The translations under genes and the position numbers were made by a program. A DNA stretch of 64,000 bases from an uncultured Pseudomonadota bacterium (GTDB lineage: Bacteria > Pseudomonadota > Alphaproteobacteria > RF32 > CAG-239): contig CABUUO010000002.1 of the NCBI GenBank assembly GCA_902494875.1, positions 166,671 through 230,670 on the forward strand. Direction: 5' to 3'. The notes under the pieces were generated by a model, which had not been told where the DNA came from, did not search any database, and saw only the letters and a list, made by a program, of their open reading frames with translations. Of this stretch, positions 2,787 to 46,285 are shown piece by piece. Positions within the stretch are counted from its first letter, which is position 1, and each line of letters begins with the position of its first letter.

Positions 2787-3559
2787 GCCATCAATTCCTT
2801 TTCTCTTTTCAAAACTTCTCCGGTTAGGCTGATATAAGCCTGAGAGCCCGGACATTTAAAATCATAAATCAGCACCGGCTTGCCGTGCGACGGCGCCTCA
2901 GAAATTCTGACGTTTCTCGGAATAACCGTCTGATAAACCTTTTTGCCGAAAAAGTTTCTGACATCGTCTTCAACCATTTGGCTGAGATTGTTTCTTTTAT
3001 CATACATGGTCAGAACAACCCCCTGCAATTCGAGCTCGGGATTGAACTTGCGTTTAATCTGGTTGATATTGCGAATCAGGTCCGTTATGCCCTCCAAAGC
3101 CAAAAATTCACATTGTAGGGGAACGATGACGGCGTTGGCCGCAACAAGCGCGTTAATCGTTATCAAGTTAAGCGAAGGCGGACAGTCTATAAGTACATAG
3201 TCATAGTTGACGGCATCATAAGCAAGAGCATTTTTTAAGGCAAACTCCCGATGCTCAACGTCAACCAGTTCAATTTCGGCTCCGGCCAGGTCCGGCGACG
3301 ATGGAACAATTGAAAAATTTGGAATCTCGGTCCAAACGATCGATTCACATAATTTGGCCGTGCCAATCAATACTTCATAAGAGGAGTTCATGCGGCCGCG
3401 CTTGTTTACGCCCATTGAGGTTGAGGCATTTCCCTGTGGATCCAAATCAATTACCAAAACCTTTTTTCCGGCGGCGGCCATGGCGGTGGCAACGTTGACC
3501 GTCGTGGTGGTTTTTCCGACGCCGCCTTTGCGGTTTGCGATGGCAATAATTCTTGGCAT
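2780..3559 (-). CDS. parA: Chromosome partitioning ATPase ParA (Soj).
   Basis: Deviant Walker A KGGVGKTTT is near the N-terminus. Length 259 aa. Sits in the parAB operon context. Confidence 0.92.
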   Translation of the reverse strand: MPRIIAIANRKGGVGKTTTTVNVATAMAAAGKKVLVIDLDPQGNASTSMGVNKRGRMNSSYEVLIGTAKLCESIVWTEIPNFSIVPSSPDLAGAEIELVDVEHREFALKNALAYDAVNYDYVLIDCPPSLNLITINALVAANAVIVPLQCEFLALEGITDLIRNINQIKRKFNPELELQGVVLTMYDKRNNLSQMVEDDVRNFFGKKVYQTVIPRNVRISEAPSHGKPVLIYDFKCPGSQAYISLTGEVLKREKELMAC

Positions 3560-3570
3560 TTATTATCTCC

Positions 3571-4185
3571 TTATTTCTTATTCAGACCGGTTATAACTAA
3601 AATTTTACCTTCGTTGCTTTGTTCACTGGCAAAAATTTCCACATTAAAATTCCATTGTCTGCGGGCTTCCAAAATTTCTTCGGCATATTTTTTGCCTTTC
3701 GGAAAAATGCAGACTGTTTCTTTTTTGCAAAATTTATAGGTATAGGCCAAAAGTTCTTTTAAGGACGCCATGGCACGCGAGGTGATAACGTCGGCCTTTT
3801 CGACTTTCAGATTTTCAATGCGATCATTAACAATTTCAACATCCGCATGCGTCAGTTCGGCAACAGCTTTTAAATACAGTGTCTTTTTTCTAATACTTTC
3901 AATCAGCCGCACTTTTAAATACGGTGTTTTTTCTTTAAGCATAATTGCCAGCACCATACCCGGGAAACCAGCACCAGAGCCGAAATCATACATTACACGC
4001 GCCGTTTGCGGAATATATTTTATCAGCTGAGCGGAATCAAGAAAATGGCGATTCCAGCAGTCGTTCAACGATGCATTGCTGACCAGATTGAATTTTTTCT
4101 GCCACTCAAAAAGAGAGGCTTCATAGGCTTTCAACCGGTCAAATGTTTCACGTGAAACATTGTATGTGTCTATAAAATTTTTCAT
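3571..4185 (-). CDS. rsmG: 16S rRNA (guanine527-N7)-methyltransferase RsmG (GidB).
   Basis: 204 aa with the SAM-MTase motif DFGSGAGFPG. Lies in the canonical position between parA and mnmG. Contains a perfect parS. Confidence 0.9.
   Translation of the reverse strand: MKNFIDTYNVSRETFDRLKAYEASLFEWQKKFNLVSNASLNDCWNRHFLDSAQLIKYIPQTARVMYDFGSGAGFPGMVLAIMLKEKTPYLKVRLIESIRKKTLYLKAVAELTHADVEIVNDRIENLKVEKADVITSRAMASLKELLAYTYKFCKKETVCIFPKGKKYAEEILEARRQWNFNVEIFASEQSNEGKILVITGLNKK
4144..4159. promoter_or_regulatory. parS centromere site TGTTTCACGTGAAACA (perfect 16-bp palindrome) inside the 5' end of rsmG.
   Basis: Exact match to the universal parS consensus tGTTtCAcGTGaAACa. parS sites characteristically lie within gidA/gidB/parAB near the origin. 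Confidence 0.75.
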
Positions 4186-4315
4186 AAAATATTTATATAA
4201 TTTTTGAAAATTATTTAAAACACAAAAACCCGAGTTATAAACACATATTTTACAACAAAGAGAAAAGAATCTTTTTACAACAAGTTAGACAACGTTTCTT
4301 GAATCTGTTTTTGAA

Positions 4316-5131
4316 CTATTTGAGAGAAAAACGCACCTGGCAACCGAGCTCTTTTAACAGATTCTCGGCTCGTTCGAAATGCTGGCCAATTTGCTCGACA
4401 CGATGTGCGTCGTCGCTGATTAAGGTCGGGACCCGACGTTTGCACAGTTCTTTCAACATCCAGGTATTGGGATGCTGCTCGTTGATGCGATTATAGCCGC
4501 TGGTATTGACCTCAAAGGGTTGTTTGCGTTTATCCAGCGCCTCAATAATCTGCCAGCGGTACTCGTCATATTCCGGCTTGTCGGGAATTTTGATGACACA
4601 ATAATCAAGGTGCGCCATAAAATCGTAATAACCGCTGTTGATAGATTCGATGACATTGCGCCAATGGCCGCGAATACATTCGGTCAAAAAATCCCGATCA
4701 AAATCGGCGGGAAGATATTTGAGATGATAAAGGTTACAGATAAAACTTTCATCCTTATTCATAACAAAATGATTGGTACCGATAAGATAATCAAAATCAA
4801 GCGCCTTTTGAAGCCGCTCAAAGCCACGGCGCCACTCTGCCGACTGAAAGAAGTCGGCTTCCGCGCCAACCAGAACGTTAATTTTGTGGCGGCTGCCTAC
4901 TTCACGGATTAAATCAATACTGCGCTTATGGATATCAATTGCCTTGTCAATATCAGCCAAAAACATAGGTTCGTGCGAAGTATCGACATTAGGGTGCCAA
5001 ATGAGGTGATTGGAAACGCCAATGGTTTTGAACCCCATTTCTTCAGCTCTGGATATCATTTCCTCGGCACTGTTATGACCGTCAAAAAAGTTAAAATTGT
5101 TATTATGGGTATGATAAGTAAAATCCTGCAT
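4316..5131 (-). CDS. PHP-domain phosphoesterase (histidinol-phosphatase-like, HisJ/PHP family).
   Basis: 271 aa. N-terminal YHTHNNNFNFFDGHNS matches the PHP H-x-H...D-G metal-binding motif. Further His/Asp clusters are spread through the sequence. Confidence 0.65.
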   Translation of the reverse strand: MQDFTYHTHNNNFNFFDGHNSAEEMISRAEEMGFKTIGVSNHLIWHPNVDTSHEPMFLADIDKAIDIHKRSIDLIREVGSRHKINVLVGAEADFFQSAEWRRGFERLQKALDFDYLIGTNHFVMNKDESFICNLYHLKYLPADFDRDFLTECIRGHWRNVIESINSGYYDFMAHLDYCVIKIPDKPEYDEYRWQIIEALDKRKQPFEVNTSGYNRINEQHPNTWMLKELCKRRVPTLISDDAHRVEQIGQHFERAENLLKELGCQVRFSLK

Positions 5132-5132
5132 A

Positions 5133-6554
5133 TTATTTTATTCCGGGCAGGGCAGGGATTTCTCTGCCATTTGCCGAAGCTTTAATGTTTATTCCCAGTT
5201 TTTGCATATTTTCCAGCAGGTCAGGATAGCCTCGAAGAGCAAAACTTGGTTCATTGACGATACTTTCACCTTCAGCTGTTGCTGCGGCCAAAATTACCGA
5301 CATGGTACCGCGCAAATCGGTTCCTTTGGCCTCTCCGCTGTGCAGAGACGAGGGGTGAATGTTGATATAGAGGTTTTTAGCGCTGGCCTGCTGTCCGCTG
5401 ACAACATCAAACTGATGATAATCAAACTGAAGACCAAACTTAGCCAGTTCAGCCAAATGTGCATATCGGCCGGGCCAAATCATATCGGAAATTACGGAAG
5501 AGGTCTGAGCCTGAGCCAAAACCGGCGTCCAAATCTGCTGTAAATCGGTTTCAAACCCCGGAAACGGTGACATCTGCATAATAAAACCGTCAAATTTTTT
5601 CCTGTTCCTGAAATCCAAATTCAATTTAGTCAAATCAGGAGAAAAATAAATGCCCTTATCAAACATTCTGGTCAGTTGGCCAATCCAAGGACTGCAATGT
5701 TCAAAATTTATGCCGTCCAACTGAACTTCACCCTGAGTTGACAAGGTCAGCAAAGCATAGGTTGCAGCTTCAAGACGGTCAGGAATAACCGAAAATTCTA
5801 TTCCATGCAAAAGACCGGTATTTTTGCCGTCATAAATCAGGCCGGTACGTTCATTTCCCATCAGTCCCAGTCCCATATTCTGCAGCATATTAATGAGGTT
5901 TGAAACTTCTGGTTCCAAAGAGGCATTATACATCATCTTCAGCTGATTAGATCCGGCAACGGACAAAAGCCAGTGAAAGGTTGCTCCGTGAGACGGTTTA
6001 GCCGTGGTGTAAACCGGACACAAATCATCAGGCTCGACAGACGGCAATGTAAAAGACAAATAGGAATATTTGTCGTTATCTTTACTTTCAACAGCAACAT
6101 GAGCACCAAAAACGTTTTTTATCAGTTCTTCGTGAAAATCGGTCGGCCGCTTACCGCCGAAAGAACAACCGCCAGGCAAACAGACTTGCAGATTGTTATA
6201 TTCACCGGTGCGCTTGAAACGCGCCAGAAGAGAACCCCAAAGATAGTAGCTGGCTCTGAAATTGGCTGCCTGATGCGAAATGACGTTTTTGTTGATCTTG
6301 GCAGCATGGAGACGAAGACGGCGTTCACGCGGATTAAAACTCACATCAACGCCGATGTCTTGCATAATCTGTCCCATTTCCAAAACATCGGTAATATAAG
6401 GAACATTGTTTAAGACAACCGGTTCATCAGTCAATAACGATGCAGCCATTAAACCCAAAATCGAATTTTTGGCGCCGCTAATTTTTATATGTCCCTGTGC
6501 AGGCTGACCGCCGTTTACAGCTAATTTTTCGGGAATAAAAAAGTTTTCAGTCAA
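5133..6554 (-). CDS. murA: UDP-N-acetylglucosamine 1-carboxyvinyltransferase MurA (enolpyruvyl transferase), 473 aa, with insertions relative to E. coli MurA.
   Basis: N-terminal ISGAKNSILGLMAASLL matches MurA ISGAKNAALPILFAALL. The active-site loop LPGGCSFGGKRPTDFH carries the catalytic Cys. FPGFETD and a C-terminal TDLRG...AEGESIV...RGY...L..LG block align along the whole MurA length. Confidence 0.8.
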   Translation of the reverse strand: MTENFFIPEKLAVNGGQPAQGHIKISGAKNSILGLMAASLLTDEPVVLNNVPYITDVLEMGQIMQDIGVDVSFNPRERRLRLHAAKINKNVISHQAANFRASYYLWGSLLARFKRTGEYNNLQVCLPGGCSFGGKRPTDFHEELIKNVFGAHVAVESKDNDKYSYLSFTLPSVEPDDLCPVYTTAKPSHGATFHWLLSVAGSNQLKMMYNASLEPEVSNLINMLQNMGLGLMGNERTGLIYDGKNTGLLHGIEFSVIPDRLEAATYALLTLSTQGEVQLDGINFEHCSPWIGQLTRMFDKGIYFSPDLTKLNLDFRNRKKFDGFIMQMSPFPGFETDLQQIWTPVLAQAQTSSVISDMIWPGRYAHLAELAKFGLQFDYHQFDVVSGQQASAKNLYINIHPSSLHSGEAKGTDLRGTMSVILAAATAEGESIVNEPSFALRGYPDLLENMQKLGINIKASANGREIPALPGIK

Positions 6555-6614
6555 TCATATTGCTCCATTGTTTCAGATATAAAATATAATAAACGAGATT
6601 TAAATTTTAGTAAA

Positions 6615-7247
6615 TCATTTTACAGTCACGCCGATCATATCATATACATCGTTATGACACAGAACATCAAAATGATTTTTAATTTTATTGTATGAGGCAA
6701 TCACAAAGAGCAGTTTATCATATGCAACATTATAACGCACGGCAATGCTCCGATAGCGTTGCTCGACGGTACAGTTGTCTCCCAGATTATTTACTGCGTC
6801 AGCCAACTGCAGCAAGCGATCGTAGTCATCATATTCAACAGTCGTCAGGTAGTTTCTGCAAAATACCATGTCCTTGCGCGGATGCGGCATAAGCCCAATA
6901 TCAAATTCCTTATCAACGAAATTATGCGTAATGGAAATTTTTGCTAGCTGCGGCCATCCTTTCTGACATAAAAGATGATATCCGACAACGCCATGATAAT
7001 CGCCGGTAGCATATTCGTCGACAATACGCCCGCAATCGTGCAGCAATCCCATAACATAGGCCAAATCAGCGTTTAAATACGGTGTCTTGGAAGCAATCGT
7101 TTCCGCTATGATTGCGACACCGTGGCAATGACGGCGAAAAGTATCTTCCATATTACCTCGAAAAGGATAAGGCGTTTTATTGCGCTCGGCAATAACCCAT
7201 TCAAAAAAATCAACGGCTTCGGAACGGCTCGGAAACGGCATATTCAT
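6615..7247 (-). CDS. HD-domain metal-dependent phosphohydrolase. The likely start is M19 of the longer ORF, which runs to 7301.
   Basis: Contains the HD motifs H..GVA...LLHDCGR. Using the longer ORF start would overlap the 3' end of mnmG. Confidence 0.55.
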   Translation of the reverse strand: MNMPFPSRSEAVDFFEWVIAERNKTPYPFRGNMEDTFRRHCHGVAIIAETIASKTPYLNADLAYVMGLLHDCGRIVDEYATGDYHGVVGYHLLCQKGWPQLAKISITHNFVDKEFDIGLMPHPRKDMVFCRNYLTTVEYDDYDRLLQLADAVNNLGDNCTVEQRYRSIAVRYNVAYDKLLFVIASYNKIKNHFDVLCHNDVYDMIGVTVK

Positions 7248-7251
7248 CGGA

Positions 7252-9099
7252 CTACCTTTTAACATACCCGAGAACGGCGGTGATTGCCGCCGGCGTAACA
7301 CCCGGTATACGAGATGCTTCGCCGATGGTGGAAGGCCGTACCTTGGAAAGTTTGGCGATCATTTCGCGAGAGAGTCCGCCGATTTTAGAATAATCTATAT
7401 CATCTTTAATTTTAAGGTTTTCATCTTTTTTGAAAATTTCTATATCGGCCAGCTGTCGTTTAATGTAACCGGCATAGCGCGCTTCAATTTCAATAGCGTC
7501 ATAAACAACTTCGGGCATATCTTTCAGTTCCGGCCATATGCGGATAATTGTTTCACGTGAAACGTCGTCATAAGACATAAGATTGAAAACCGTACGTTTG
7601 GTACCGTCACTTTTTACTTTTATGCCGTAAGTTTCAAGATTTTTCGGGGTGGTCAAAAGTTCCTCACAAAGCCGGCGATAATATTCTATTTGGGCTTTTT
7701 TAGCTTTAAATACACTGTATCTGTATTCACCGACGCAGCCGATCTCATATCCTTTTTCGGTCAGGCGCCAATCGGCATTGTCCGCCCGTAAAAACAGACG
7801 ATATTCGGAACGAGAGGTAAACATACGATATGGTTCGTCAACACCTTTGGTTATCAGGTCATCAATCATAACGCCTATATAAGCTTCACTGCGGTCAACC
7901 GTAAAACAACGTTTTTGACCGTTTGCCGCCAAAGCTGCGTTAATACCGGCAATCAATCCCTGGGCCGCCGCTTCTTCATAGCCCGTAGTTCCGTTAATCT
8001 GTCCGGCCAGAAACAGTCCCGGAACTTTTTTGACGGCAAGACGGTTGTCCAGCTCCTGAGGATCTACATAGTCATATTCAATGGCATAGGCATATTTCAA
8101 AATTTCGACATCTTCCAAACCTTCCATGGTATGAATGAAAGCTTCCTGAACATCTGCCGGCAGAGAAGTTGAAATTCCGTTCGGATAAACGACATCGGTA
8201 TCCAGCCCTTCAGGCTCCAAAAAAATCTGATGACTGGTACGATCGGCAAATTTAACCAGTTTATCTTCAATACTCGGACAATAGCGCGGACCGATACCGG
8301 TAATCAACCCGGAAAAGAGAGCGCACTTATCGAAATTGTCACGAATAATCTTATGGGTTTGTTCATTGGTGTGCGTGATAAAACACCGAATCTGAGGATT
8401 ACTGATTTTTTCGGTAAGATAAGAAAACGGCTGTGGCGGATTGTCTCCGTCTTGTACAGCCAATTTTTCCCAATGAATGGTTTTACCGTTCAAACGGGCA
8501 GGGGTTCCGGTCTTCAGCCGTCCTACTTTCAAGCCCAAAGACTTTAAATACGGTGTTATTCCCGTACAACTGACATCATCAATACGACCGCCGACCGTGG
8601 CCTGATGACCGACAAACATTATGCCGTTCAGGAAAGTTCCCGAAGTTAATATTACAGATTTTGCAAGCAATTGAACGCCATCAGCCAAGACAACACCTTC
8701 AACTTTGTTGTCATTGACAACCAATCCTTCCACAGCTGCCTCAATAATGTCAAGATTGTCCTGAGCGCGCAAAGCCTCAAGCATATAGCGCTTATAAAGT
8801 CTGCGGTCAGCCTGGGCTCTCGGACCGCGCACAGCCGGACCTTTCGACGCGTTAAGCATACGAAACTGTATGCCGGCCTTGTCAATTACCCGTCCCATCA
8901 GGCCGTCCAAAGCGTCTATTTCACGGACAAGATGACCTTTGCCCAAGCCGCCGATGGCCGGATTGCAGGACATTGCGCCGATGGTGTCAATATGATGTGT
9001 GACCAGTGCCGTTTTGGCGCCCATACGGGCCGCCGCCGCACAGGCCTCGCATCCGGCGTGACCACCGCCAACAACAATTACGTCATAGTTTGTATTCAT
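7252..9099 (-). CDS. mnmG: tRNA uridine 5-carboxymethylaminomethyl modification enzyme MnmG (GidA).
   Basis: 615 aa. N-terminal FAD-binding motif [14 protein letters not shown]. Typical GidA length and C-terminal domain. Confidence 0.95.
7549..7564. promoter_or_regulatory. parS-like site TGTTTCACGTGAAACG (15/16 match) inside mnmG.
   Basis: One mismatch to the parS consensus. Located in the classical gidA position. Confidence 0.6.
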
Positions 9100-9351
9100 T
9101 ATATCAGAGCCTTAAATTGTGCAAATTTTTCTCTGGTATAACTTAACAAATAAAAGTTAGCAAGGATTTAATGGCGGAAGATAAATAAAACGCCGTAAAA
9201 ACAGGCGATTCAACGATGTTTTGTCAGGTATCGACACAAAAAAAAGCATTTTTTATAACAAGGACGATAAATTTACGGCAATATCAGGTATAAATATGAC
9301 TTTTGAGCAAGGTTCAAAGGACTCGGAACCATTCTGCGCCAGACATAATAT

Positions 9352-9395
9352 CCCAATAAAAAAACACTGTCAAATCAGACAATTTGACAGTGTTT
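9352..9395 (-). terminator. Rho-independent terminator for the minus-strand ORF 9419..9868: a 14-bp perfect stem (AAACACTGTCAAAT / ATTTGACAGTGTTT) with a 6-nt loop, followed on the minus strand by TTTTTTTATT.
   Basis: Inverted repeat 9362..9375 / 9382..9395. On the plus strand an A-run 9358..9364 precedes it, which reads as a T-run after the stem on the minus strand. Confidence 0.6.
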
Positions 9396-9418
9396 CCAGA
9401 TTAGATCAATTAATTTTA

Positions 9419-9868
9419 TTAAAACCAGATCCCGTTGCGAGAACAGTAATCCAGCAGCGCAACAACAGCGCTTTCGGAAAAATATTCCGGGCAGCGGTAC
9501 GCCAAAGACAAAAGCAACAAAGCTTCAAGGTAGTTGTCGTAAACTTTTCCTATTCGGAAAAGCTCGATGAAATCTTCAACGGCAGCAATATAACTGCTGC
9601 GCATAGTTTCCAACTTTTCCAACTTTGCGTCAGAGTTTTCAATCAAGAGCAAAACAGGAAAGCTCTGACTGTGGTTCTCAAAAAGGCTTACAAACTCTTT
9701 TACGTCTTCAGCCAACTGTTTCAATTTTTTCCGGTCGTAAAACAGCACCTCAAGATGATCATTGTCAAAATAGTTTTGATCCATGATGATCTCAAACAAT
9801 TCTTCTTCCGGAAGCGGTTGGAGATTTTTGGAGATCAGAAAACTGATTCCCGTACTAAGCTTTCTCAT
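9419..9868 (-). CDS. Hypothetical acidic 149-aa protein inserted between mnmG and mnmE.
   Basis: ORF with protein-like composition, followed by a strong intrinsic terminator in the correct orientation. No recognisable domain. Confidence 0.4.
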   Translation of the reverse strand: MRKLSTGISFLISKNLQPLPEEELFEIIMDQNYFDNDHLEVLFYDRKKLKQLAEDVKEFVSLFENHSQSFPVLLLIENSDAKLEKLETMRSSYIAAVEDFIELFRIGKVYDNYLEALLLLSLAYRCPEYFSESAVVALLDYCSRNGIWF

Positions 9869-10015
9869 TTTTAATAATTTTTAGTGATAGTATATAAGTA
9901 ATTAACAGCTGATATGAGCTATAACACAAGGATCTGCCAAGGTCAATAGACAAATTGACAAATAAAAAAGACGACACTTCTTAATCAAAGCGCCGTCTTT
10001 AGTGTGTAATTACGA

Positions 10016-11359
10016 TTACTTTCCGATGCAAAAATCTCCGAAAATCTTATCCAAAACCTCATCCACTTCTATGCGGCCGGTTATTTTTCCCAAAGCGCGA
10101 GCCGCCAACCTTATGTCTTCGGCGGTTAATTCAATTTCTTTGTCAAACCCGAAAGCCTGCAAATTGTCGACAACGTCCTTTAAAGCTTCTCTATAGCGGC
10201 GGCGGGTAATCAGCAAACTTGAATTAGAGGTAAAACGCTCTTTGATATTATCTCCGATTTTTTGCAAAAGCTCGTCAACACCATCTTTGTATTTGGCAGA
10301 AATGACCAGACAACCGGATTTTTTTAAATTAGAACATTGTTCGGGAGACAACTTGTCACTTTTGTTGGCAACAAACAAGGCCCTGTTTTTAAATGAATTT
10401 CTAATTTTATCAAAGACCTGAACATTGTCTAGCGATGCGTCAAACAAACAAATGACTAAATCTGCATCGTGAATTTTGGAATAGGCAATGTCGATACCCT
10501 TTTTTTCGATTTCTTCTTCAGTCTCCCGCAAACCGGCCGTATCGGTAAACATTACCGGATAACCATTTAAATCCAAATGGATATCAATGGCATCACGGGT
10601 AGTGCCGGCTATATCAGACACGATTACCGCATCTCTTTTAACAATGGCATTAAGCAAACTTGATTTTCCGGCGTTGGGCGACCCTATAATAACAACTCGA
10701 AAACCTTCACGCAGACGTTCACCTATTGAATCACCGTTCAGATGTTGATTTATCTCATCTTCAAGTTTAAATACGGTGTTTTTCATATCACTCATTACAG
10801 ACGAGGGAATATCTTCATCAGGAAAATCAATGAAGGCTTCCAAATGAGCCAAAATCTTAACCAGCCTCGTCCGCCAGTCTTCGTAAAGATTTTTCAAACC
10901 GCCTTCCATTTGACGCATGGCATATTTTTGCTGCTCGGTTGTTTCCGAATCAATCAGGTCTGCCAAACCCTCGGCTTCAGTCAAATCCATCTTGCCGTTA
11001 TAAAAAGCCCGTCTTGAATATTCTCCAGGCTCGGCCAGACGAAAATCAGGCAGCCGACTCAAGTTCTCCATCAGTGAATTTATGACGGCTTTGGAACCAT
11101 GGGTTTGAAACTCGACAATGTCCTCTCCGGTGAAAGAATAAGGTCCCTTAAAATATAAAACCAGGCTTTGATCCAATGTTTCACGTGAATCAATATCGCT
11201 GATTTTAGAAAAATAGGCATAACGCGGTTTTATTCCGGAAACGTCAATATCCGTCATTCGCGTAACGGCTTGCAAAGCCGATGGTCCGGAAATGCGGATA
11301 ACGGCGACGCCCGATTTTCCATAAACAGTGGATAAAGCATAAATGGTTTCAGCTGTCAT
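10016..11359 (-). CDS. mnmE: tRNA modification GTPase MnmE (TrmE).
   Basis: 447 aa. G-domain motifs GSPNAGKSSLLN, DTAG and NKSD. Ends with the typical C-terminal ...FCIGK. Confidence 0.95.
   Translation of the reverse strand: MTAETIYALSTVYGKSGVAVIRISGPSALQAVTRMTDIDVSGIKPRYAYFSKISDIDSRETLDQSLVLYFKGPYSFTGEDIVEFQTHGSKAVINSLMENLSRLPDFRLAEPGEYSRRAFYNGKMDLTEAEGLADLIDSETTEQQKYAMRQMEGGLKNLYEDWRTRLVKILAHLEAFIDFPDEDIPSSVMSDMKNTVFKLEDEINQHLNGDSIGERLREGFRVVIIGSPNAGKSSLLNAIVKRDAVIVSDIAGTTRDAIDIHLDLNGYPVMFTDTAGLRETEEEIEKKGIDIAYSKIHDADLVICLFDASLDNVQVFDKIRNSFKNRALFVANKSDKLSPEQCSNLKKSGCLVISAKYKDGVDELLQKIGDNIKERFTSNSSLLITRRRYREALKDVVDNLQAFGFDKEIELTAEDIRLAARALGKITGRIEVDEVLDKIFGDFCIGK
11177..11192. promoter_or_regulatory. 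parS-like site TGTTTCACGTGAATCA (15/16) inside mnmE.
   Basis: Single mismatch to the parS consensus. This is the third copy within 7 kb. Confidence 0.5.
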
Positions 11360-11671
11360 AAAATTTCTCCTTTCGCATTTTTTTTATAATAAGATTGTCA
11401 AATGAAAGCAACATTTAAAAGCGACTCTACATAAACAGCGATTTTTTGACTCAGGAGAGGGTAAGGCCTTTTTTACGACGCATTTATTATCTACCGGGCT
11501 AATTTCTTTTGTACGGGCAAATTTTGGATTTATTATTCTGCAACTTATAAGTTAAAAACAAAAAAAAATTATTTCTATTGTTGAAAAAAACAAGTTATTG
11601 ATTTTTGTCAAATTTGTGATAAACTAAAAACAACATAAAATTAAACAGATTATTATTTAAATTTAGTAATT

Positions 11672-12415
11672 ATGAAAAGATTAAAATTAAATTTTAAACT
11701 AATTGCAATTGTTGCAATTGGTTTGGCGGCATGTATTACAGGTATTTTGTTTTTTCATTTGGGATATACCATCAGCGCTTCAATCATTTGCTTTGCTTTT
11801 TATTATACGCTTGAAGATGGTGAACGCGACAGTGAAATATGCATCGGCGAAAACCAATTAAATTTATTTCCGTTGTTAATTTTTCTTCTTTTATGGCCGA
11901 TTATTGAAGTCAGCGGTATGATCTTTCTGCCTTCACTCATTATATGCCTGACGGCATATATGTTAAGGCGTCCTTTATGTGACTACATTTGGCCGGACGA
12001 ATATAATAACAACAGCTTTTTGGAAAACGTAAAATACAATATAGACGTATATGTTCTTCCCGTTTTACGTATCGTTATAGTCAGCGGCATACTTTCCGGT
12101 TGTTCTTTCTTTTTAACCCAAATCGACGAAGGTATAAAAGAAAAAACAGAAGCTAAAAAAATAGAACAGAGTGAAAAAATACGCCGGGCCACAGAACAGA
12201 AAACTACGGCGACCGTAAAAGAAATAAAAAGCGAAACGGTTAACGGCAATACGGTTTATTATGTCGTCGTAAGCAATAATATTTCACAAAAAACAGACAC
12301 CCTCAGCCTTGATACGTCTTCCGGAGCGATCTGGTTGAAAGAGGGATCCTTCGTATCTTATAATTATTCTCCGGAAAATATCGTGGAAAATTTCAGGATA
12401 ATTGAACATCCCTGA
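11672..12415 (+). CDS. Hypothetical membrane protein with 4-5 N-terminal TM helices and a hydrophilic C-terminal domain.
   Basis: 247-aa ORF convergent with rho. Followed by a strong bidirectional terminator. Confidence 0.45.
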   Translation: MKRLKLNFKLIAIVAIGLAACITGILFFHLGYTISASIICFAFYYTLEDGERDSEICIGENQLNLFPLLIFLLLWPIIEVSGMIFLPSLIICLTAYMLRRPLCDYIWPDEYNNNSFLENVKYNIDVYVLPVLRIVIVSGILSGCSFFLTQIDEGIKEKTEAKKIEQSEKIRRATEQKTTATVKEIKSETVNGNTVYYVVVSNNISQKTDTLSLDTSSGAIWLKEGSFVSYNYSPENIVENFRIIEHP

Positions 12416-12417
12416 AA

Positions 12418-12469
12418 AATTCTTAAAAAGAAAAGCTCCTTTGGTAAGGAGCTTTTCTTTTTAAGAATT
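12418..12469. terminator. Bidirectional intrinsic terminator: a perfect 24-bp-arm palindrome AATTCTTAAAAAGAAAAGCTCCTT-TGGT-AAGGAGCTTTTCTTTTTAAGAATT between the convergent ORF 11672..12415 and rho.
   Basis: Perfect inverted repeat read directly from the sequence. T-runs flank the GC core on both strands. It overlaps the rho stop codon. Confidence 0.7.
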
Positions 12470-13714
12470 CATAGTATTGAAGAAATCCTGATTGTCTTTG
12501 CTTTGTTTCAGCTTATCAAGCAGAAATTCCATACCGTCGGTCATGCCCATCTGCATCAGAACGCGGCGCAAAACCCACATCTTGGACAAAGTTGCCTTAT
12601 CAACCAACAGTTCTTCTTTGCGGGTACCGGAACGTGTGATATCAATGGTCGGGAACAGACGTTTGTCCGTCAATTTACGATCCAAAATGATTTCGGAATT
12701 ACCGGTACCTTTGAATTCTTCAAAAATAACCTCGTCCATACGGGAACCGGTATCAATCAAGGCCGTAGCAATAATGGTCAGGGAACCGCCTTCTTCAACG
12801 TTGCGGGCAGCACCCAGCAGTCTTTTGGGACGCTGCAGGGCATTAGCGTCAACACCGCCGGTCAAAACCTTGCCCGAAGAAGGGATAACGGTATTGTAAG
12901 CACGACCGAGACGCGTGATGGAATCCAGCAGGATAATGACGTCTTTTTTTGTTTCGACCAAACGTTTGGCTTTTTCAATAACCATTTCAGCAACCTGAAC
13001 ATGGCGGGCAGCCGGTTCGTCAAAAGTGGATGAAATAACTTCACCTTTGACGGAACGCGTCATGTCGGTCACTTCTTCCGGACGTTCGTCAATTAAAAGT
13101 ACCATAAGATAAGCTTCAGGATGATTGGTTGCTATCGCGTGCGCAATATTTTGCAGCATAACCGTTTTACCGGTACGCGGCGGAGCCACAATTAACCCGC
13201 GCTGACCTTTACCTTGCGGGGCGATAAGATCAATAACGCGGGTCGTATAATCTTTGTCACCGCAGATAATGTCAAAATCTAATTTTTCAGTAGGGTAAAG
13301 AGGCGTGAGGTTATCAAAGTTAATACGGAGTTTGGAAAGTTCAGGATCTTCAAAGTTTATGCGATTGACTTTCGTCAGGGCAAAATAGCGTTCGTTATCT
13401 TTCGGTGCACGTATTTCGCCTTCTACAGTATCGCCGGTGCGAAGGCCAAATTTCTTGACCTGCGAAGGCGAAACATAAATGTCATCCGGTCCGGCAAGAT
13501 AGTTTGACTGGCTGGATCGTAAAAAACCGAAGCCGTCTTGCAGAACTTCGATTGTACCTTCACCGTAAATAATGTTGTCTTCGCTGGCAACTTTTTTCAA
13601 AATGGCAAACATTAAATCTTGTTTGCGCATGGAGGAAGCATCTTCAATGCCTAAATCTTCAGCTTCAGTAAGCAGTTCTTTAGGAGATTTCTGTTTTAGA
13701 TCTTTTAAATTCAT
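12461..13714 (-). CDS. rho: Transcription termination factor Rho.
   Basis: 417 aa. Contains the N-terminal RNA-binding domain, Walker [13 protein letters not shown], and Q-loop/R-loop regions. Confidence 0.95.
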
Positions 13715-14356
13715 ATTAACCTTGAGATAGTATATTGGGAATAAGTTTAAGGGATTAAACTTTTGTTAAGCGTTATTTGTTAACTGTAATCGGTAAGTTG
13801 GAAAATTTATATTATGTTATTTCATTTTTGTCAATAAAGTTTTGACAAAACCGGGAGATGTTAATTTATCTTTTGGTATGTAAATTTCCGGTTTCTGCTG
13901 AAAGTTTTATTCACAGCCCCGCAGGGCTAACTATATAATTTTTAAAATTTAGTAGTTGATAGTGAATCCCAGTGAATCCTGTGTATTATTTTTTATACCT
14001 GATTTTATACACAGTTTAACGATTTGTTAATAAGTTTGTGAATCAAAAATCAGGCGGATTCTTTTTTTGATTCTTTTTCAAACGTCTATAGAGGCCAAAC
14101 CTTTTTTTTGTGCTTTGTTGATAAAAGTATTTATCCACGTTTATTTGAGATGTTAATTTAAGTTATTAACTTGTATATAACTTATATATATAAATTTGTT
14201 TTATGCCGATAAAATTGTATAAATACGAGCAGGGCTTCGGTTATGCACAGAAAGTTAACGAGCTGTTAATAACTAGGGTAACCTTTTGAATTGATATATT
14301 ATTTATGTCTGAAAAATGTTTTTTCAAGGGACAGGCATAATTTTAAGGTTTAAACG
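13715..14356. promoter_or_regulatory. Candidate chromosomal replication origin (Cori-like): an AT-rich 640-bp divergent intergenic region between rho and coaE.
   Basis: Five GANTC (CcrM) sites lie within 110 bp (GAATC at 13964, 13974 and 14040; GATTC at 14057 and 14069). A DnaA-box-like TTATCCACG sits at 14131..14139. TTAA-N7-TTAA (CtrA-like) motifs occur at 13755..13769 and 14255..14269. The flanking genes (rho on one side, coaE-dnaQ on the other) match the Caulobacter Cori neighbourhood. Confidence 0.45.
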
Positions 14357-14944
14357 ATGAAACTTATTGCAATTACCGGTTCGATTGGCTGCGGAAAAAC
14401 GACCATTGCCAAAATAATCAAAGCTCTTGGCTACAGCGTGTTTGATGTTGACGGTTGGGTGCGAGCCTTATATTTTCAAAAGGATTTTATTGCAACCATT
14501 GTCAAAAATTTTCCCGAGGCGGCCGATGACGGTGTGTTTAATAAAAGAAAACTGCGCAATCTGGTTTTTGACGACAACAGGGAACTGAAAAGGCTGGAGG
14601 CTTTGATACATCCGTTTTTAAAAGAGAAGCTGAAGTCGGTCATCCGTCGCAACGCGGTCTGCGACGATTTGTTTTTTTTGGATGTGGCTTTGTTGTTTGA
14701 AATGGGATGGGATAAATATTGCGATTTTATCATTGTGGCCGATGTTGCCGATGATATTCAAAAGCAGAGGGTCATGAAAAGGGACAAAGTCAGTGCCGAA
14801 CATTTTGAAAAAATCAACAGCGTGCAGATGAACAAAAGAGTCAAAGCCGACATGGCCGATGCTGTGATTGATACTGATGTTCCGCTTAATTTGCTGAAAG
14901 TGGATATTTTAAATATTATCGAAGGGTTGGAGAACAATGGTTAG
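14357..14944 (+). CDS. coaE: Dephospho-CoA kinase CoaE.
   Basis: N-terminal P-loop IAITGSIGCGKTT. Length 195 aa. Overlaps dnaQ by 8 nt. Confidence 0.85.
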   Translation: MKLIAITGSIGCGKTTIAKIIKALGYSVFDVDGWVRALYFQKDFIATIVKNFPEAADDGVFNKRKLRNLVFDDNRELKRLEALIHPFLKEKLKSVIRRNAVCDDLFFLDVALLFEMGWDKYCDFIIVADVADDIQKQRVMKRDKVSAEHFEKINSVQMNKRVKADMADAVIDTDVPLNLLKVDILNIIEGLENNG

Positions 14945-15653
14945 AGAGATTGTATTTGATACGGAAACAACCGGTTTTGACGCGCCGAAAGGCGATCGCT
15001 TGGTTGAAATCGGCGCCGTGGAATTAATTAACCATCTGCCGACCGGCAAAGTATACCACCAATATATCAATCCGCAGCGTGATGTTCCTGAAGACGCTTT
15101 TAAAGTGCATGGGCTGTCCTATGAGTTTTTGAAAGATTTTCCGACGTTTGACCAGATTGTGGACGATTGGCTGGCTTTTGTCGGCGATGACGCCGTTTTG
15201 GTTGCGCATAATGCTTCTTTTGATATTAATTTCTGCAACTATGAGCAGAAGGCGCTGAATAAACCTGAATTCAGCTGGGACCGGGTGGTTGATACGCTGG
15301 AAATTGCACGAAATATGTTTCCCGGTTCAAGAGTCAATCTTGACGCCTTGTGCAAACGTTTCGGTGTGGACAATTCAAACCGTACCAAACACGGCGCTCT
15401 GCTTGATGCCGAACTGTTGGCCGAAGTTTATCTTCAGTTAATCGGCGGGCAGGAGCCAACTATGATGTTTGAAGACAAAAAGGCGTCTTCGGCAGTTGAT
15501 CGTTTTACAGCGGAAAAAATTGAGCGCAAATTCAGAGAACCCCGCCATTATGCTCTTTCGGAAGCAGATTTGCAGGCGCATAAAGATTTTCTGGCGGCCA
15601 AGATAAAAGGGGCGTTGTGGTATGCCGGCGAGCAAGATAAACCGGCAGAGTGA
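14937..15653 (+). CDS. dnaQ: DNA polymerase III epsilon subunit (3'-5' proofreading exonuclease) DnaQ.
   Basis: Exo I motif FDTETTGF, Exo II HNASFD and Exo III HGALLDAELL. Length 238 aa. Confidence 0.9.
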   Translation: MVREIVFDTETTGFDAPKGDRLVEIGAVELINHLPTGKVYHQYINPQRDVPEDAFKVHGLSYEFLKDFPTFDQIVDDWLAFVGDDAVLVAHNASFDINFCNYEQKALNKPEFSWDRVVDTLEIARNMFPGSRVNLDALCKRFGVDNSNRTKHGALLDAELLAEVYLQLIGGQEPTMMFEDKKASSAVDRFTAEKIERKFREPRHYALSEADLQAHKDFLAAKIKGALWYAGEQDKPAE

Positions 15654-19254: not shown

Positions 19255-22200
19255 ATGGATTCGTTTTTAAAGAGGTCTTTTATGTGCCGAAAGAGACTGG
19301 AAATTTTGGTTTCTTGTCTGTTCTTGTCAAGTTTTTGCTGTGGTACGGCAAAAGCTCAGACTTCCGTAGATTCATGGGATGCTCTGAAAACGGGTGTGGC
19401 AGCCGGAGAGGTGGCACTTGGAGGAGACATTCAGGCAACGGCCAATCAGCCGATCCGCGATTATCAAAACGGGGCGGTAATTCACGGCAACGGACATAAA
19501 ATTACCGGCAGCGACTATATGACGGATTCTGCCGGCGGCGGCGGATTGATCGTTTTAGACAAGGTTTCGGGAGACGGGCTGAGTCTGGACGGCGTAGATG
19601 TCAGCGGTTTTCATAATACTTCTTCGGACGATGACGCCAGCGGAACCGGCGTTATTTATGTTAAAGATTCAAATATGGGGACGATTGACGGCAAGTTTTC
19701 CGACAACAGCGTCATAAGCAGTTATGGTACTATCGGTTCGGTCGTCAGCAATGCGGGCGGAAAGATTGCCGGCATTACCGATAGTGTTTTTGAGGGAAAC
19801 AGCGTAGCAGAAAACAGTTCCGAAAAAGACGAGGTTACGTCCCGCGGTGGCGCCGTATATAACGGTGCGTCCGATGATAATGCCGGCGTTATCGGGGACA
19901 TTACCGGATCGACGTTTAAGAATAATTCGGTTACTTCCGAAAACAACGGTGCCGGCGGCGGCGCAATTTACAACTCCGCCGACAGTTCGATAGGCAATAT
20001 TGCGGCTGATTTCAGCGGCAATAAGGTTATCAGCAACGCTAATGTTGACAAGGACCGTTTTGTTGCCAACGGCGGTGCCATTTATAACAATGCTTCAAGC
20101 ATCGGAAATATTTCCGGCAATTTTACTCAAAACAGCGTGGAAGCCACCCAAAGCGGAAGTGCCGGCGGCGGTGCTATATTGAACCGCGACGGAGCGGAAA
20201 TCAAAGATGTCAGCGGCACTTTTTCCGGTAATACGGCGACCGGCAGCGGAGCATACGGCGGCGCGATTTTGTCGGCCGGTTCAAGTACGGAAGATTCTAA
20301 AATAGGCAATATTACGGCTGATTTTACACAAAACGAAGCCGTCGGTACGGAAGGGGCGTATGGCGGAGCCATTGACAACGAAGCCAAAAGCATGATAGGC
20401 ACCATAAGCGGAAAGTTCGACGGAAACGCGGCGGTTTCGGAGAAGGAATCTCTGGGCGGTGCCATTTATAACGGCGGTACGATTACCAATATCGAAAACG
20501 CAACCTTTACCGATAATAAGGCGGAAGCGACGACGGAAGGCGGACAGGCTTTGGGCGGTGCCATTTATACGGAAACGGATCTGACCATATCCGCCAATAA
20601 CGGAGATTCGTTGTTTTCGGGAAATGTGACTTATGTAAACGGCGAAAGTTTTTCCAATGCGGTTTATGTCGGAAATCAAGACGCAATATTAAGTTTGAAT
20701 GCCAAGAACGGTAATATAACGTTTGACGACGGTATTTACGGGAGCAAGGGTTATCAAGTTCAAATCGGCGGTGATGCCACCGGTTCGGTTAACTTGAATG
20801 AACAGATCGGCAATGCGGGAGAAATATCTGTTGATGACGGGGTAACGGTTAATTTTGGCGAAAAAGTGACGGTTGATACGGATTTAAACGTTAATAACGG
20901 CACGGTTAACGATGCCAGCATTGTCAACGGGGGAAAGATTTCCGTTGCAGCCGGTTCCACGGCTCATAATTTGGCGCTGTTGGCCGGTTCCGGATTTGAT
21001 TTTTCCGACGGCGCCGTTTTGACCGGCAGTATTTTGATTGACAAAGGTGCTGTTTCCGCTTCCAGCTATGACCATATTTTTGCCAATGACGTTGAAAGCA
21101 AACTGATTTTGACCGGTGGTTTTAACGAGGCCTTTACGGCATTGAAAAACGATTATGCTGACAAAAGTCTGGTATTGGCGAACGGAACTTATAATTTTTC
21201 CGGCGAAAGCGGAAAAGGACTTGAGCTTTCAGGCTGGGAATCAATAACCATCGGTTCGGACGACGGAAACGCAGCAGTCGGCAAGCTGGAAGGCAATATG
21301 AATATGCCTGATGTAACCGACAGTTTATATATTAAAAAGAACGGCACGTTTGATTTGTCCGGCAGCGGCGCCGGGGTTTTTGAGTTCGGCGGTTCGGTGG
21401 TTAACGACGGCACAATTTCTTTTCAGGACAATTCCGCCGACGATGTTACGACCATAAAAGGCAGTTATACGGCTCAAAACAATGCGCAGATGATTGTTGA
21501 CGTCGATCCGTCAGCCGGAACGTCTGATCTGCTCAAGATAGAAGGCGATGTTGTCGGGCATACGTCCGTTGTGGTTAACGCTTTGGGCAGCGGTATATCA
21601 AGAAATCAGATTTTATTTGCCGACGTGAGCGGTGACGATGAGGCAACGGCTTCTTCTTTTGACGTATACCGGGTTATGAATAATCCGTTTATGTGGAATG
21701 CGGTTTTGGAAGACAAAAAATGGTATTTTGACAAGACCAATATTGTGGTCGGTGAGGTTATCGCCTATACGGGGCTGCCCGGTGCCGGCATAGATCAAAC
21801 CAGAGGTCTGATTGACAATATTTCCGCCAATTCACATGGAACGGAAAAAACCAAAAAAGAGTGTCAGTATTATAAGGACTATTTCCGCTGCCGGAGCTAT
21901 AATACGCTTAACACTTGGGTTGCGCCGGTTTACGGCACGTCAGACGTTACGGCTCCGTTTAAGTATACGGCCGACGTTGCGGGCGTGGATGCGGGCGTGG
22001 ACGTTGACTACGGCTTTTACAACAAGTTGGGATTGTTTATGTCTTACCGCACGGGGGCGTATGATTTTGACGGAACCGGAGAAGAAATTTCTTCGGACAC
22101 GGGTTCCAGCATTGATATCAACAGCTATCTGGCCGGTTTATATTATCGGTACGAGCGCGGTTATCTGTGGACGATGTCTACGATTTTCGGCGGCGTGCAA

Positions 22201-22692
22201 AATGCGGAAATGAGCTCGGATGACGGTGTCAGTTCGGATACCAGCGGTATGGAGCTTGGCGCCAGTTTTGAGGCCGGTTTGATTTTTAATCCGATGACGG
22301 ATTTGTTTATCGAACCGATTGTCGGACTGTTTTATACGCATATTGCCTATGACGATTTTACGGACGATTATGGCAAAAAGGTTGAGTATGACGCGGTTAT
22401 GAATTTGGATTTGGAAGCGGGAATCCGAATTGAAAAAAGGTTTAAGACCGACAACGGTTATGCCAAGTTTTATTTCAAGCCGAGCGTTATTCAGAGCCTG
22501 TCTTCCGGAGACGTCAATATCAGCGAGCTGCCGGCGATGAGCAGCACGGACAACCGGACTCTGACAAAGTTTGAATTTGGCGGCAGCATTGATTTCAGCG
22601 ACGGCTGGAACGGTTTCGGCAATGTATCTTACATTACCGGCAGCGATTACAGCAATGTGGCGGCAAACGTCGGCGTGAACTATACCTGGTAA
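19255..22692 (+). CDS. Autotransporter (type Va) outer-membrane protein with a Pmp-like passenger domain. It carries at least 8 tandem GGA[IVL]-x(15-20)-FxxN repeats and a C-terminal beta-barrel translocator ending NVGVNYTW.
   Basis: N-terminal signal peptide (LEILVSCLFLSSFCCGTAKAQ). Repeated units GGAIYN...IGNI.G.F..N occupy roughly nt 19800..20620. The C-terminal approximately 300 aa has alternating beta-strand hydrophobicity and a terminal aromatic residue. Confidence 0.85.
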   Translation: MDSFLKRSFMCRKRLEILVSCLFLSSFCCGTAKAQTSVDSWDALKTGVAAGEVALGGDIQATANQPIRDYQNGAVIHGNGHKITGSDYMTDSAGGGGLIVLDKVSGDGLSLDGVDVSGFHNTSSDDDASGTGVIYVKDSNMGTIDGKFSDNSVISSYGTIGSVVSNAGGKIAGITDSVFEGNSVAENSSEKDEVTSRGGAVYNGASDDNAGVIGDITGSTFKNNSVTSENNGAGGGAIYNSADSSIGNIAADFSGNKVISNANVDKDRFVANGGAIYNNASSIGNISGNFTQNSVEATQSGSAGGGAILNRDGAEIKDVSGTFSGNTATGSGAYGGAILSAGSSTEDSKIGNITADFTQNEAVGTEGAYGGAIDNEAKSMIGTISGKFDGNAAVSEKESLGGAIYNGGTITNIENATFTDNKAEATTEGGQALGGAIYTETDLTISANNGDSLFSGNVTYVNGESFSNAVYVGNQDAILSLNAKNGNITFDDGIYGSKGYQVQIGGDATGSVNLNEQIGNAGEISVDDGVTVNFGEKVTVDTDLNVNNGTVNDASIVNGGKISVAAGSTAHNLALLAGSGFDFSDGAVLTGSILIDKGAVSASSYDHIFANDVESKLILTGGFNEAFTALKNDYADKSLVLANGTYNFSGESGKGLELSGWESITIGSDDGNAAVGKLEGNMNMPDVTDSLYIKKNGTFDLSGSGAGVFEFGGSVVNDGTISFQDNSADDVTTIKGSYTAQNNAQMIVDVDPSAGTSDLLKIEGDVVGHTSVVVNALGSGISRNQILFADVSGDDEATASSFDVYRVMNNPFMWNAVLEDKKWYFDKTNIVVGEVIAYTGLPGAGIDQTRGLIDNISANSHGTEKTKKECQYYKDYFRCRSYNTLNTWVAPVYGTSDVTAPFKYTADVAGVDAGVDVDYGFYNKLGLFMSYRTGAYDFDGTGEEISSDTGSSIDINSYLAGLYYRYERGYLWTMSTIFGGVQNAEMSSDDGVSSDTSGMELGASFEAGLIFNPMTDLFIEPIVGLFYTHIAYDDFTDDYGKKVEYDAVMNLDLEAGIRIEKRFKTDNGYAKFYFKPSVIQSLSSGDVNISELPAMSSTDNRTLTKFEFGGSIDFSDGWNGFGNVSYITGSDYSNVAANVGVNYTW

Positions 22693-37996: not shown

Positions 37997-38000
37997 AACC

Positions 38001-39689: not shown

Positions 39690-39690
39690 G

Positions 39691-46124: not shown

Positions 46125-46285
46125 TCAGTGTTTTCCTTATTATTAATATCGTGTCAAGCATTAGCGAATAATGCCGAAAAGTCAAGTTTTAAAAGCCTTT
46201 TATAAACCTTTATTAATCTCATCTTAAACAATGTCTGCTAGGATGCGCCCAAGATAAAAACAAGTTTTTTGAGAAAGGTTATAAT

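Follow-up and report, generated by a model that had tools for sequence, protein, structure and literature searches.

The subject of this analysis is the divergent spacer between the rho and coaE genes (positions 13715-14356) in a stretch of 64,000 nucleotides from an uncultured alphaproteobacterium (contig CABUUO010000002.1; the whole stretch is called the window), which is proposed here as the chromosomal origin of replication (oriC). On the left, the spacer is bounded by rho (12461-13714, - strand; NCBIfam Rho equivalog, 688 bits), and on the right by coaE (14357-14944, + strand), which forms a pair with dnaQ (14937-15653, + strand; NCBIfam TIGR00152 / NF004316 for the pair, 14357-15653). 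Further leftward are found an unknown lipoprotein-like ORF (orf247), mnmE, mnmG, an HD-domain gene, a murA-like gene, a PHP phosphatase gene, rsmG, parA, and parB, whereas smr, an unknown ORF, mltA, a Tim44-like gene, secB, and an autotransporter gene follow rightward. The spacer is 642 bp long and its GC content is 28.3%, versus 46.7% in the window. An earlier note on this DNA, made from the sequence alone, had described an AT-rich divergent spacer at these positions as the probable origin. The description was correct, and the claim is supported by GC skew, gene orientation, synteny, motif concentration, and conserved architecture. Taken together with the nearby parS sites, these features make it very likely that the spacer is the oriC of this chromosome.

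Concerning the motif content, the spacer carries five GANTC sites (13964, 13974, 14040, 14057, and 14069) and five DnaA boxes with at most one mismatch to TTATCCACA (13907, 14005, 14116 on the - strand, 14131, and 14241). Window-wide counts were made with the motif consensus sequences of Ioannidis et al. (PMC1914354). Three of the four DnaA boxes of the TTATNCACA form in the window fall in the spacer, as do three of the five TTAA-N7-TTAA motifs (13755, 14016, and 14255); a fourth, at 13705, overlaps the start of rho. When only fully intergenic TTAA-N7-TTAA motifs are considered, the proportion is three out of four. The sole copy away from the origin region (TTAATCTCATCTTAA, 46213-46227) is located in the spacer between fabD and a HIT-domain gene, upstream of the HIT-domain gene and ftsK.

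The enrichment was evaluated against 2000 dinucleotide-preserving shuffles of the spacer itself. The five GANTC sites compare with a shuffle mean of 0.86 for the whole spacer (P 0.0005), and none of the 2000 shuffles placed five of them inside 110 bp. TTAA-N7-TTAA was observed three times versus a mean of 0.29 (P 0.0035), TTAA-N6-GTTAA five times on both strands versus 0.09 (0/2000 shuffles), and DnaA boxes with at most one mismatch five times versus 0.20 (0/2000, P < 0.0005). The earlier note had counted the same five GANTC sites within 13964..14073, and its chance expectation of about 0.4 is conservative if anything. It had also recognized the DnaA-box-like TTATCCACG at 14131..14139, which is present, but it missed the four other one-mismatch boxes and the G-box-like TGATTCACA. 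Similarly, its two TTAA-N7-TTAA motifs (13755 and 14255) are real, but the one at 14016, which is the best conserved, and the one over the rho start were overlooked.

Clustering of DnaA boxes in intergenic DNA is one of the features by which an oriC is recognized, and the spacer shows it. The window has 17 intergenic regions of 120 bp or more; DnaA boxes are confined to one of them, the rho/coaE spacer, and the other 16 share a single TTAA-N7-TTAA. The spacer is also the uniquely site-rich intergenic region when these 17 regions are considered together with about 105 kb of clade loci.

Other readings of the spacer as a coding or RNA element were considered. A hidden coding gene is ruled out, since the small-ORF scan of the spacer gave none longer than 31 aa. 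A small RNA (sRNA) or riboswitch was also rejected: RNAalifold on a seven-species alignment gives unfavourable covariation, the predicted pairs are the inverted DnaA boxes, and the Rfam scan of the spacer (E ≤ 1) returned two chance-level matches only. Moreover, the spacer holds an exact 14-nt direct repeat (GAGATGTTAATTTA, 13855-13868 and 14147-14160), whose copies lie 292 bp apart and each contain a TGTTAAT core.

CoaE homologues with 68-77% identity gave six further loci (L087-L092). Together with the metagenome-assembled genome (MAG) L007, the closest species-level genome by Rho (91% identity), they make seven relatives; the next closest by Rho are Rhodospirillales-type genomes (about 80%). 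Identical loci are present in several metagenome assemblies. The arrangement rho / 475-643 bp / coaE-dnaQ is found in 7/7 relatives. The 4-fold degenerate sites of rho are 43-54% identical to the window, near saturation, yet the spacers have blocks averaging at least 80% identity over six relatives (13904-13931, 13980-13994, 14017-14039, 14164-14182, and 14208-14223). The module order is also common to the relatives' spacers: DnaA boxes in inverted pairs are combined with a TTAAY-N5-TGTTAATAA site, with clusters of GANTC, and with a block rich in AT. In the spacers of the seven relatives, TTATNCACA and TTAA-N7-TTAA each occur about 5 times per kb, versus 0.03 per kb outside. Considering the eight orthologous spacers, GANTC sites number 1-6 per spacer where about 0.9 are expected, with at least three in 6/8 and only one in L007. 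The CtrA-type sites range from 0 to 4 per spacer across the relatives; L089 has six DnaA boxes and zero exact TTAA-N7-TTAA. As judged from these alignments, the eight-species footprint marks origin elements under selection.

The modules of the spacer can be followed from the rho side to the coaE side. The first TTAA-N7-TTAA site (TTAAACTTTTGTTAA, 13755..13769, + strand) is kept in L087 as TTAAGCTTTTGTTAA, and L090, L091, and L007 lack that segment of the spacer. Next, within the conserved block 13904-13931, the DnaA box TTATTCACA (13907..13915, + strand) fits TTATNCACA, and its position is kept in 7/7 aligned spacers as TTAT[T/G][C/A]ACA. A sigma-70-like promoter, TTCACA-N18-TATAAT (13910..13939, + strand), agrees with 11/12 consensus positions and is aimed through the box cluster to coaE. 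Its 18-bp spacer is filled by the GC hairpin or palindrome AGCCCCGCAGGGCT (13915-13928), nearly invariant in 6/7 spacers, which is kept at the same position in L087-L091 and absent in L007. This region would function as a promoter and a hairpin, and since the conservation of AGCCCCGCAGGGCT goes far beyond what a promoter spacer needs, it may be an operator for a further protein.

The following module (13950..13979, + strand) consists of a TAGTAGTTGATAGT block and two AGTGAATCC copies 10 bp apart, which bear the GANTC sites 13964 and 13974. It is partly kept across the clade, where its form is TAGTAGTTGATAGT followed by GANTC-bearing GTGAATCC repeats. It is followed by an inverted DnaA-box pair (13980..14013) composed of TGTGTATTA (13980-13988, - strand, two mismatches) and TTATACACA (14005-14013, + strand). 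Aligned to this pair, the relatives show TGTGGATAA / TGTGGATAG and TTATCCACA / ATATCCACA / TTATCCAGA, the clade form being TGTGNATNA ... TTATNCACA, and TGTGTATTATTTTTTAT is identical in L007. The bipartite TTAA-N7-TTAA site TTAACGATTTGTTAATAA (14016..14033, + strand) is the best conserved. Its conserved block is 14017-14039, its clade consensus is TTAAY-N5-TGTTAATAA, and it occurs at the aligned position in 6/7 aligned spacers, while the five central bases vary freely. The protein bound at 14016-14033 would be CtrA and/or DnaA.

Just beyond this site, the GANTC cluster 14040, 14057, and 14069 (14037..14073) is kept as GTGAATCAGATTC...GGATTC in L087 and L088, the clade form having two or three GANTC sites, and the Caulobacter G-box-like TGATTCACA is located on the - strand at 14037-14045. 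A further inverted DnaA-box pair (14116..14139) is formed by TGTTGATAA (14116-14124, equal to TTATCAACA on the - strand) and TTATCCACG (14131-14139, + strand); the relatives show TGTTAATAA / TGTTGACAA and TTATTCACA / TTATGCACA in the aligned positions, and the clade form is TGTT[A/G]ATAA / TTATNCAC[A/G]. The conserved AT-rich block at 14160..14224 is the candidate DNA-unwinding element. It comprises about 65 bp that are nearly identical across the window, L087, L088, and L089, and duplex stability in the spacer is lowest within it, at the 30-mer 14174-14204. Finally, the coaE-proximal module (14241..14272) is made up of the DnaA box TTATGCACA (14241-14249, + strand) and TTAACGAGCTGTTAATAA (14255-14272). 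In the relatives, the right-hand 9-mer of this module is TGTGTATAA, TGTGAATAA, TGTGGAAAA, or TGTTTATAA, that is, a reverse-oriented DnaA box, and the clade form of the pair is TTAT[G/A]CACA-N13/14-TGT[G/T]NATAA.

GC skew and strand bias were also studied. Over the first 11 kb or so the skew is negative, and between about 13 kb and the end at 64 kb it is positive; the cumulative skew shows a flat minimum at 11.0-13.3 kb (lowest at 11072), climbing from within rho onward. A minimum with a switch of the leading strand, as expected of an oriC, is therefore found within the 64 kb, and a skew that turns positive along the + strand is what an origin, and not a terminus, would show. Regarding gene orientation, the - strand carries 11.3 kb of the coding sequence to the left of the spacer and the + strand 0.7 kb, versus 17.5 kb and 28.6 kb, respectively, to the right. 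In L007, the cumulative minimum is inside the orthologous spacer, flanked by skews of -0.15 (left) and +0.17 (right), and all genes up to 10 kb on either side are transcribed away from the spacer.

As the lowest point of the cumulative skew in the window, where the plateau begins, is at 11072, the origin could instead be the neighbouring divergent spacer between mnmE and orf247 (11360-11671), with a merely regulatory role for the rho/coaE spacer. That spacer has 25% GC and holds the least stable 60-mer of the window, and two DnaA-like boxes (11293 and 11327) and a parS site (11177) are located just inside mnmE. Against this, it contains neither a DnaA box with at most one mismatch nor a TTAA-N7-TTAA, and the corresponding spacers of the relatives have no TTATNCACA. 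The content of the mnmE-rho interval is also variable, with orf247 here and HAD hydrolases, an FGase, or an amidoligase in the relatives. Furthermore, the mnmE block of L007 is on the other side of the rho/coaE spacer, yet the skew minimum of that genome is still at rho/coaE. An origin at mnmE/orf247 is thus highly improbable.

The rearrangement in L007 deserves a description of its own. In this genome (1-10000, compared with 1812-11359 of the window), the parB-parA-rsmG-PHP-mnmG-mnmE block is inverted and adjoins dnaQ on the coaE side, and it is still co-oriented with the inferred direction of replication. A block that keeps this orientation despite the change of side fits a rearrangement across the replichore boundary at the spacer. 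A simple inversion of the segment dnaQ-coaE/rho was rejected on the ground that no smr, mltA, tim44, or secB lies within 10 kb downstream of rho; the rearrangement is more complex than a single inversion.

The chromosome partitioning genes also adjoin the spacer. The earlier note placed a parAB-gid cluster here, and parB, parA, rsmG, mnmG, and mnmE are indeed on the left side. The three parS sites that it reported 2-10 kb away are real as well, one of them being a perfect TGTTTCACGTGAAACA inside rsmG (4144..4159) and the other two having one mismatch each (7549..7564, and 11177..11192 inside mnmE). Their distances to the spacer are 2.5-9.6 kb (n=3).

Synteny with other alphaproteobacteria was determined in about 60 genomes fetched via Rho, in which the order is smr-mltA-tim44-secB-dnaQ-coaE-[2.5-5.5 kb]-rho-mnmE-mnmG-rsmG-parA-parB. 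This order bears out the Caulobacter-like neighbourhood that had been argued for the locus. The gene content of the coaE-rho gap was annotated in two outgroup genomes, Nisaea (L072) and Phenylobacterium (L073), where aroE-maf-ppsR/DUF299 on one strand and hemE-(hemH)-hemJ on the other are separated by a divergent spacer. The hemE/DUF299 (COG1806) spacer is the experimentally mapped Cori of Caulobacter (PMC6393856), and a hemE/COG1806 origin has been predicted in Rickettsia (PMC1914354). On this syntenic basis, the rho/coaE spacer would descend from the alphaproteobacterial hemE/DUF299 origin of the Caulobacter Cori type.

None of hemE, ppsR/DUF299 (COG1806), maf, aroE, hemH, and hemJ is present at the locus or anywhere in the 64 kb. 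The clade's loci as a whole (the window and the seven relatives, eight diverged genomes) likewise lack these genes in the gap, hemE and COG1806 included, and keep a single spacer there. The loss of hemE, maf, and aroE proposed previously therefore holds for the locus, but the list was too short, because ppsR/DUF299 and hemJ/hemH have to be added. As aroK is in the window (29242-29778), aroE is probably encoded elsewhere in the genome. A tblastn search of the spacer found no remnants of hemE, ppsR, maf, aroE, hemH, or hemJ, and the spacers of Nisaea and Phenylobacterium are GC-rich and unalignable with those of the clade, so the descent from the hemE/ppsR spacer is drawn from synteny. The spacer was also called a minimal origin, which does not agree with its length, since 642 bp exceed the roughly 400 bp of hemE/COG1806 origins (PMC1914354).

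Ioannidis et al. recognize alphaproteobacterial origins by four features: (a) adjacency to hemE or COG1806/DUF299, (b) DnaA, CtrA-type, and IHF motifs, (c) an intergenic region uniquely rich in sites, and (d) an AT content above the average. The spacer is adjacent to neither of the genes in (a), holding instead the syntenic coaE-rho slot. With respect to (b), it has three TTATNCACA DnaA boxes and three TTAA-N7-TTAA motifs and no IHF site; the uniqueness asked for in (c) was described above, and for (d) its AT content is 72% versus 53% with the window as reference. Due to the lack of hemE/COG1806 and of an IHF consensus, the spacer is filed as an alphaproteobacterial-type DnaA-dependent oriC and not as a strict member of the Ioannidis group.

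It could also be argued that the spacer is only a long divergent promoter and operator region for rho and coaE-dnaQ, that the origin is elsewhere, for example by dnaA, and that the skew results from gene orientation. The spacer does contain promoter-like sites, rho has long regulatory leaders, the view is limited to 64 kb of the genome, and dnaA is not in the window. Nevertheless, the positive skew lasts for 50 kb rightward although the - strand there carries 38% of the coding sequence, no equal density of DnaA boxes occurs anywhere else in about 170 kb of clade sequence, parABS adjoins the spacer, and its position is syntenic with the mapped Cori. Furthermore, the proximity of dnaA to ori is not conserved in Rhodospirillales or Sphingomonadales (PMC8116508), so the absence of dnaA from the window is of no concern. 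A purely regulatory spacer is consequently considered very unlikely.

Several observations weigh against the rho/coaE spacer as oriC. No perfect TTATCCACA box is present in the window's spacer, and scans of the spacer for the IHF consensus (WATCAN5WTR, WATCAANNNNTTR) found none. Neither dnaA nor ctrA nor ccrM is among the genes of the 64-kb window. The cumulative-skew minimum is 0.4-2.6 kb to the left of the spacer, over rho and the + strand insert, an offset shared by several relatives, and as the skew profile spans 64 kb, a part of the genome only, the global minimum could fall elsewhere. The AT-rich block ranks fifth among the least stable 60-mers of the window. Lastly, the support for the origin is computational throughout.

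From the motifs and their conservation we infer the protein-DNA interactions, the unwinding site, and the origin activity as follows. DnaA would bind about 7-9 boxes of moderate or low strength (TTATNCACA and relaxed forms of it), mostly arranged as inverted pairs, between 13907 and 14272, and its oligomers would open the AT-rich block at about 14160-14224; helicase loading and then bidirectional replication would follow. The TTAAY-N5-TGTTAATAA sites, which abut or overlap DnaA boxes, would most likely be bound by a regulator that competes with DnaA, CtrA being the obvious candidate. The GANTC cluster would be methylated by a CcrM homologue, and parABS, through its three parS sites 2.5-9.6 kb off, would segregate the origin region.

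The role of CcrM was approached through the distribution of GANTC. In the window, its observed/expected ratio is 0.52 and its intergenic/coding density ratio is 2.1, the top of 24 pentanucleotides of its type. A low frequency of GANTC with intergenic enrichment is the signature of genomes that encode CcrM, an enzyme present in all alphaproteobacterial orders but Rickettsiales and Magnetococcales (PMC3973325), and the pattern found here matches this signature. However, GATC, GTNAC, and CTNAG are equally or more depleted, so the depletion is not specific to CcrM; as proof of CcrM it is weakened, and only the intergenic enrichment is distinctive. Both ctrA and ccrM are present in 72-82% of Rhodospirillales genomes (PMC8116508). 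In Caulobacter, the methylation of Cori is dispensable for replication (PMC6393856), hence GANTC would here do no more than modulate it.

The depletion of GATC was also examined in other genomes. Its observed/expected ratio is 0.47 in the window and 0.11-0.42 in the relatives (L007, L087-L091), and GATC is 1-3 fold enriched in the outgroup alphaproteobacteria L041, L072, L010, L013, and L073. This suggests that a GATC-targeting restriction system or another kind of selection has acted in the clade.

Regarding the bipartite sites, they match the CtrA consensus exactly and abut DnaA boxes, resembling Caulobacter Cori, whose G2 box is overlapped by a CtrA site (PMC6393856). However, at orthologous positions TGTGTATAA, TGTGAATAA, TGTGGAAAA, or TGTTGATAA takes the place of their right half, TGTTAATAA. 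Because of this swapping with DnaA boxes, and of the L089 spacer without an exact site, the sites may be composite or not related to CtrA. They may combine CtrA and DnaA elements, represent DnaA boxes of a relaxed kind, or serve a different protein, and the chances that CtrA binds them look roughly even.

One way to read these data keeps the origin at the spacer and denies that the TTAA-N7-TTAA sites are CtrA operators: TGTTAATAA would be a relaxed DnaA box of this AT-rich lineage, or the bipartite site as a whole would be bound by another protein, and GANTC would be incidental to a GTGAATC-type motif. This reading is a serious contender, with somewhat less than an even chance of being right. 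The DnaA-box variants that replace TGTTAATAA at orthologous positions speak for it, as do the distances of TGTTAATAA from TGTTGATAA (one step) and TGTGGATAA (two steps), L089, which has six DnaA boxes without any exact TTAA-N7-TTAA, and the single GANTC in the spacer of L007. A search for TTAA-N7-TTAA ahead of the pilin and fliX genes of L090-L092 was also negative, and the frequency of ctrA in Rhodospirillales given above is incomplete. On the other hand, the left half TTAA[C/T] is kept with the right half at a fixed period of 11 bp and five free central bases, which is the footprint of a dimeric protein and the exact CtrA consensus. The excess of TTAA-N6-GTTAA on both strands (5 versus 0.09 expected), the location of CtrA sites over DnaA boxes, which is the arrangement of Caulobacter Cori (PMC6393856), and the recurrence of GANTC clusters of 3-6 in 6/8 spacers also speak against this reading.

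A more specific proposal is offered tentatively, and it is rather doubtful: an anaerobic clade would have cut the ancestral hemE/DUF299 locus to one spacer with composite TTAAY-N5-TGTTAATAA operators, each joining a CtrA half-site to a relaxed DnaA box, and with a conserved AGCCCCGCAGGGCT promoter firing through the boxes. If true, the competition between CtrA and DnaA and the transcription-coupled control of the origin, so far known from dimorphic Caulobacter, would also occur in a lineage whose Rho is closest to that of Rhodospirillales-type genomes, and the invariant palindrome AGCCCCGCAGGGCT might bind an additional origin regulator.

Other features of the window provide information about the organism and the surroundings of the spacer. 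A NuoE/NuoF-like pair with a group A6 NADH-dependent [FeFe] hydrogenase (37514-41460), an ADP-dependent sugar kinase (26926-28338), an ankyrin-repeat protein (43728-44228), and an autotransporter of 1145 aa (19255-22692) are encoded. The [FeFe] hydrogenase and the ADP-dependent sugar kinase suggest that the organism is anaerobic, and the gene content of the window indicates that it is possibly host-associated. Moreover, the PHP/HisJ-type phosphatase, the murA-like carboxyvinyltransferase (under the murA cutoffs), and the HD/HDOD-domain gene (4316-7301) sit between rsmG and mnmG, which are adjacent in most of the compared alphaproteobacteria.

The mnmE-rho interval is a variable insertion zone in the clade (11360-12460 in the window, 2522-4103 in L087, 3293-4122 in L088, and 4425-8259 in L090). 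In the window, the insert is the unknown 247-aa ORF, which has a lipoprotein-type signal peptide, and in the relatives it consists of one or two HAD hydrolases, an FGase-like gene, or an amidoligase-like gene. The inserts nearest to mnmE all lie on the strand that opposes replication as inferred here.

A short palindromic repeat related to RPE1, the Rickettsia palindromic element (NCBIfam TIGR01045, 43.7 bits with a cutoff of 30, E = 1.9e-11), is present in at least three copies (62270-62400, 62419-62468, and 45062-45117, the third in the fabG/fabD spacer). It forms a long hairpin of -44.9 kcal/mol over 131 nt. Two tandem copies are read through in the extended 5' end of the hemW ORF (61204-62478, - strand), and the real start of hemW is probably downstream of them.

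Concerning its significance, the assignment fixes the origin of an uncultured clade, and with it the division of the chromosome into replichores. The clade is frequent in metagenome assemblies, with at least 1000 contigs carrying one related CoaE. This is useful for coverage-based estimates of growth rate (peak-to-trough ratio), for the rotation and annotation of genomes, and for origin databases. Origin predictors anchored on hemE or dnaA would miss the rho/coaE locus. Furthermore, the locus is a clean natural case of an alphaproteobacterial origin that outlives the loss of both classical boundary genes at its locus.

Compared with the oriC of Escherichia coli and Bacillus subtilis, the spacer likewise has a cluster of DnaA boxes by an AT-rich element of low stability, a switch of GC skew, and parS nearby. 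Unlike them, it is not adjacent to dnaA or dnaN, it shows no demonstrable array of 13-mers or DnaA-trios, and control of the GATC/SeqA type is missing, GATC being depleted in the clade. The predicted origins of Rickettsia, Wolbachia, Ehrlichia, and Anaplasma (Ioannidis et al. 2007, PMC1914354; Brassinga 2001 in the part cited there) are similar in being AT-rich intergenic regions of 400-600 bp with TTATNCACA and TTAA-N7-TTAA, and the number of CtrA sites differs between relatives there as well as here (0 to 4). An IHF site is reported in those origins, in contrast to the spacer, and they all retain the hemE boundary, whereas here neither hemE nor COG1806 is left. A change of boundary genes by rearrangement has already been documented at alphaproteobacterial origins, namely COG1253/hemE in Anaplasmataceae (PMC1914354), which the rho/coaE spacer resembles in this respect.

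The closest likeness by position is with the Cori of Caulobacter crescentus, located between hemE and CCNA_00001/DUF299. The spacer occupies the same place by synteny, with dnaQ-coaE on one side and rho-mnmE-mnmG-rsmG-parAB on the other. It differs from Cori in that hemE, DUF299/ppsR, maf, aroE, and hemJ/hemH are missing at the locus and the spacer has no IHF consensus site, in its strong AT-richness, and in its boxes, which follow TTATNCACA and not the GC-rich W-box type. The organism also appears to be anaerobic, given its [FeFe] hydrogenase, unlike Caulobacter, and a dependence on CtrA and CcrM is putative here. On the other hand, both have multiple non-consensus DnaA boxes, including the G-box-like TGATTCACA, several TTAA-N7-TTAA sites that abut or overlap DnaA boxes, an equal number of five GANTC sites, and an AT-rich region with an internal promoter-like element. 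Very probably, then, the rho/coaE locus is not a new kind of system but an ordinary Caulobacter-type origin minus its usual flanking genes.

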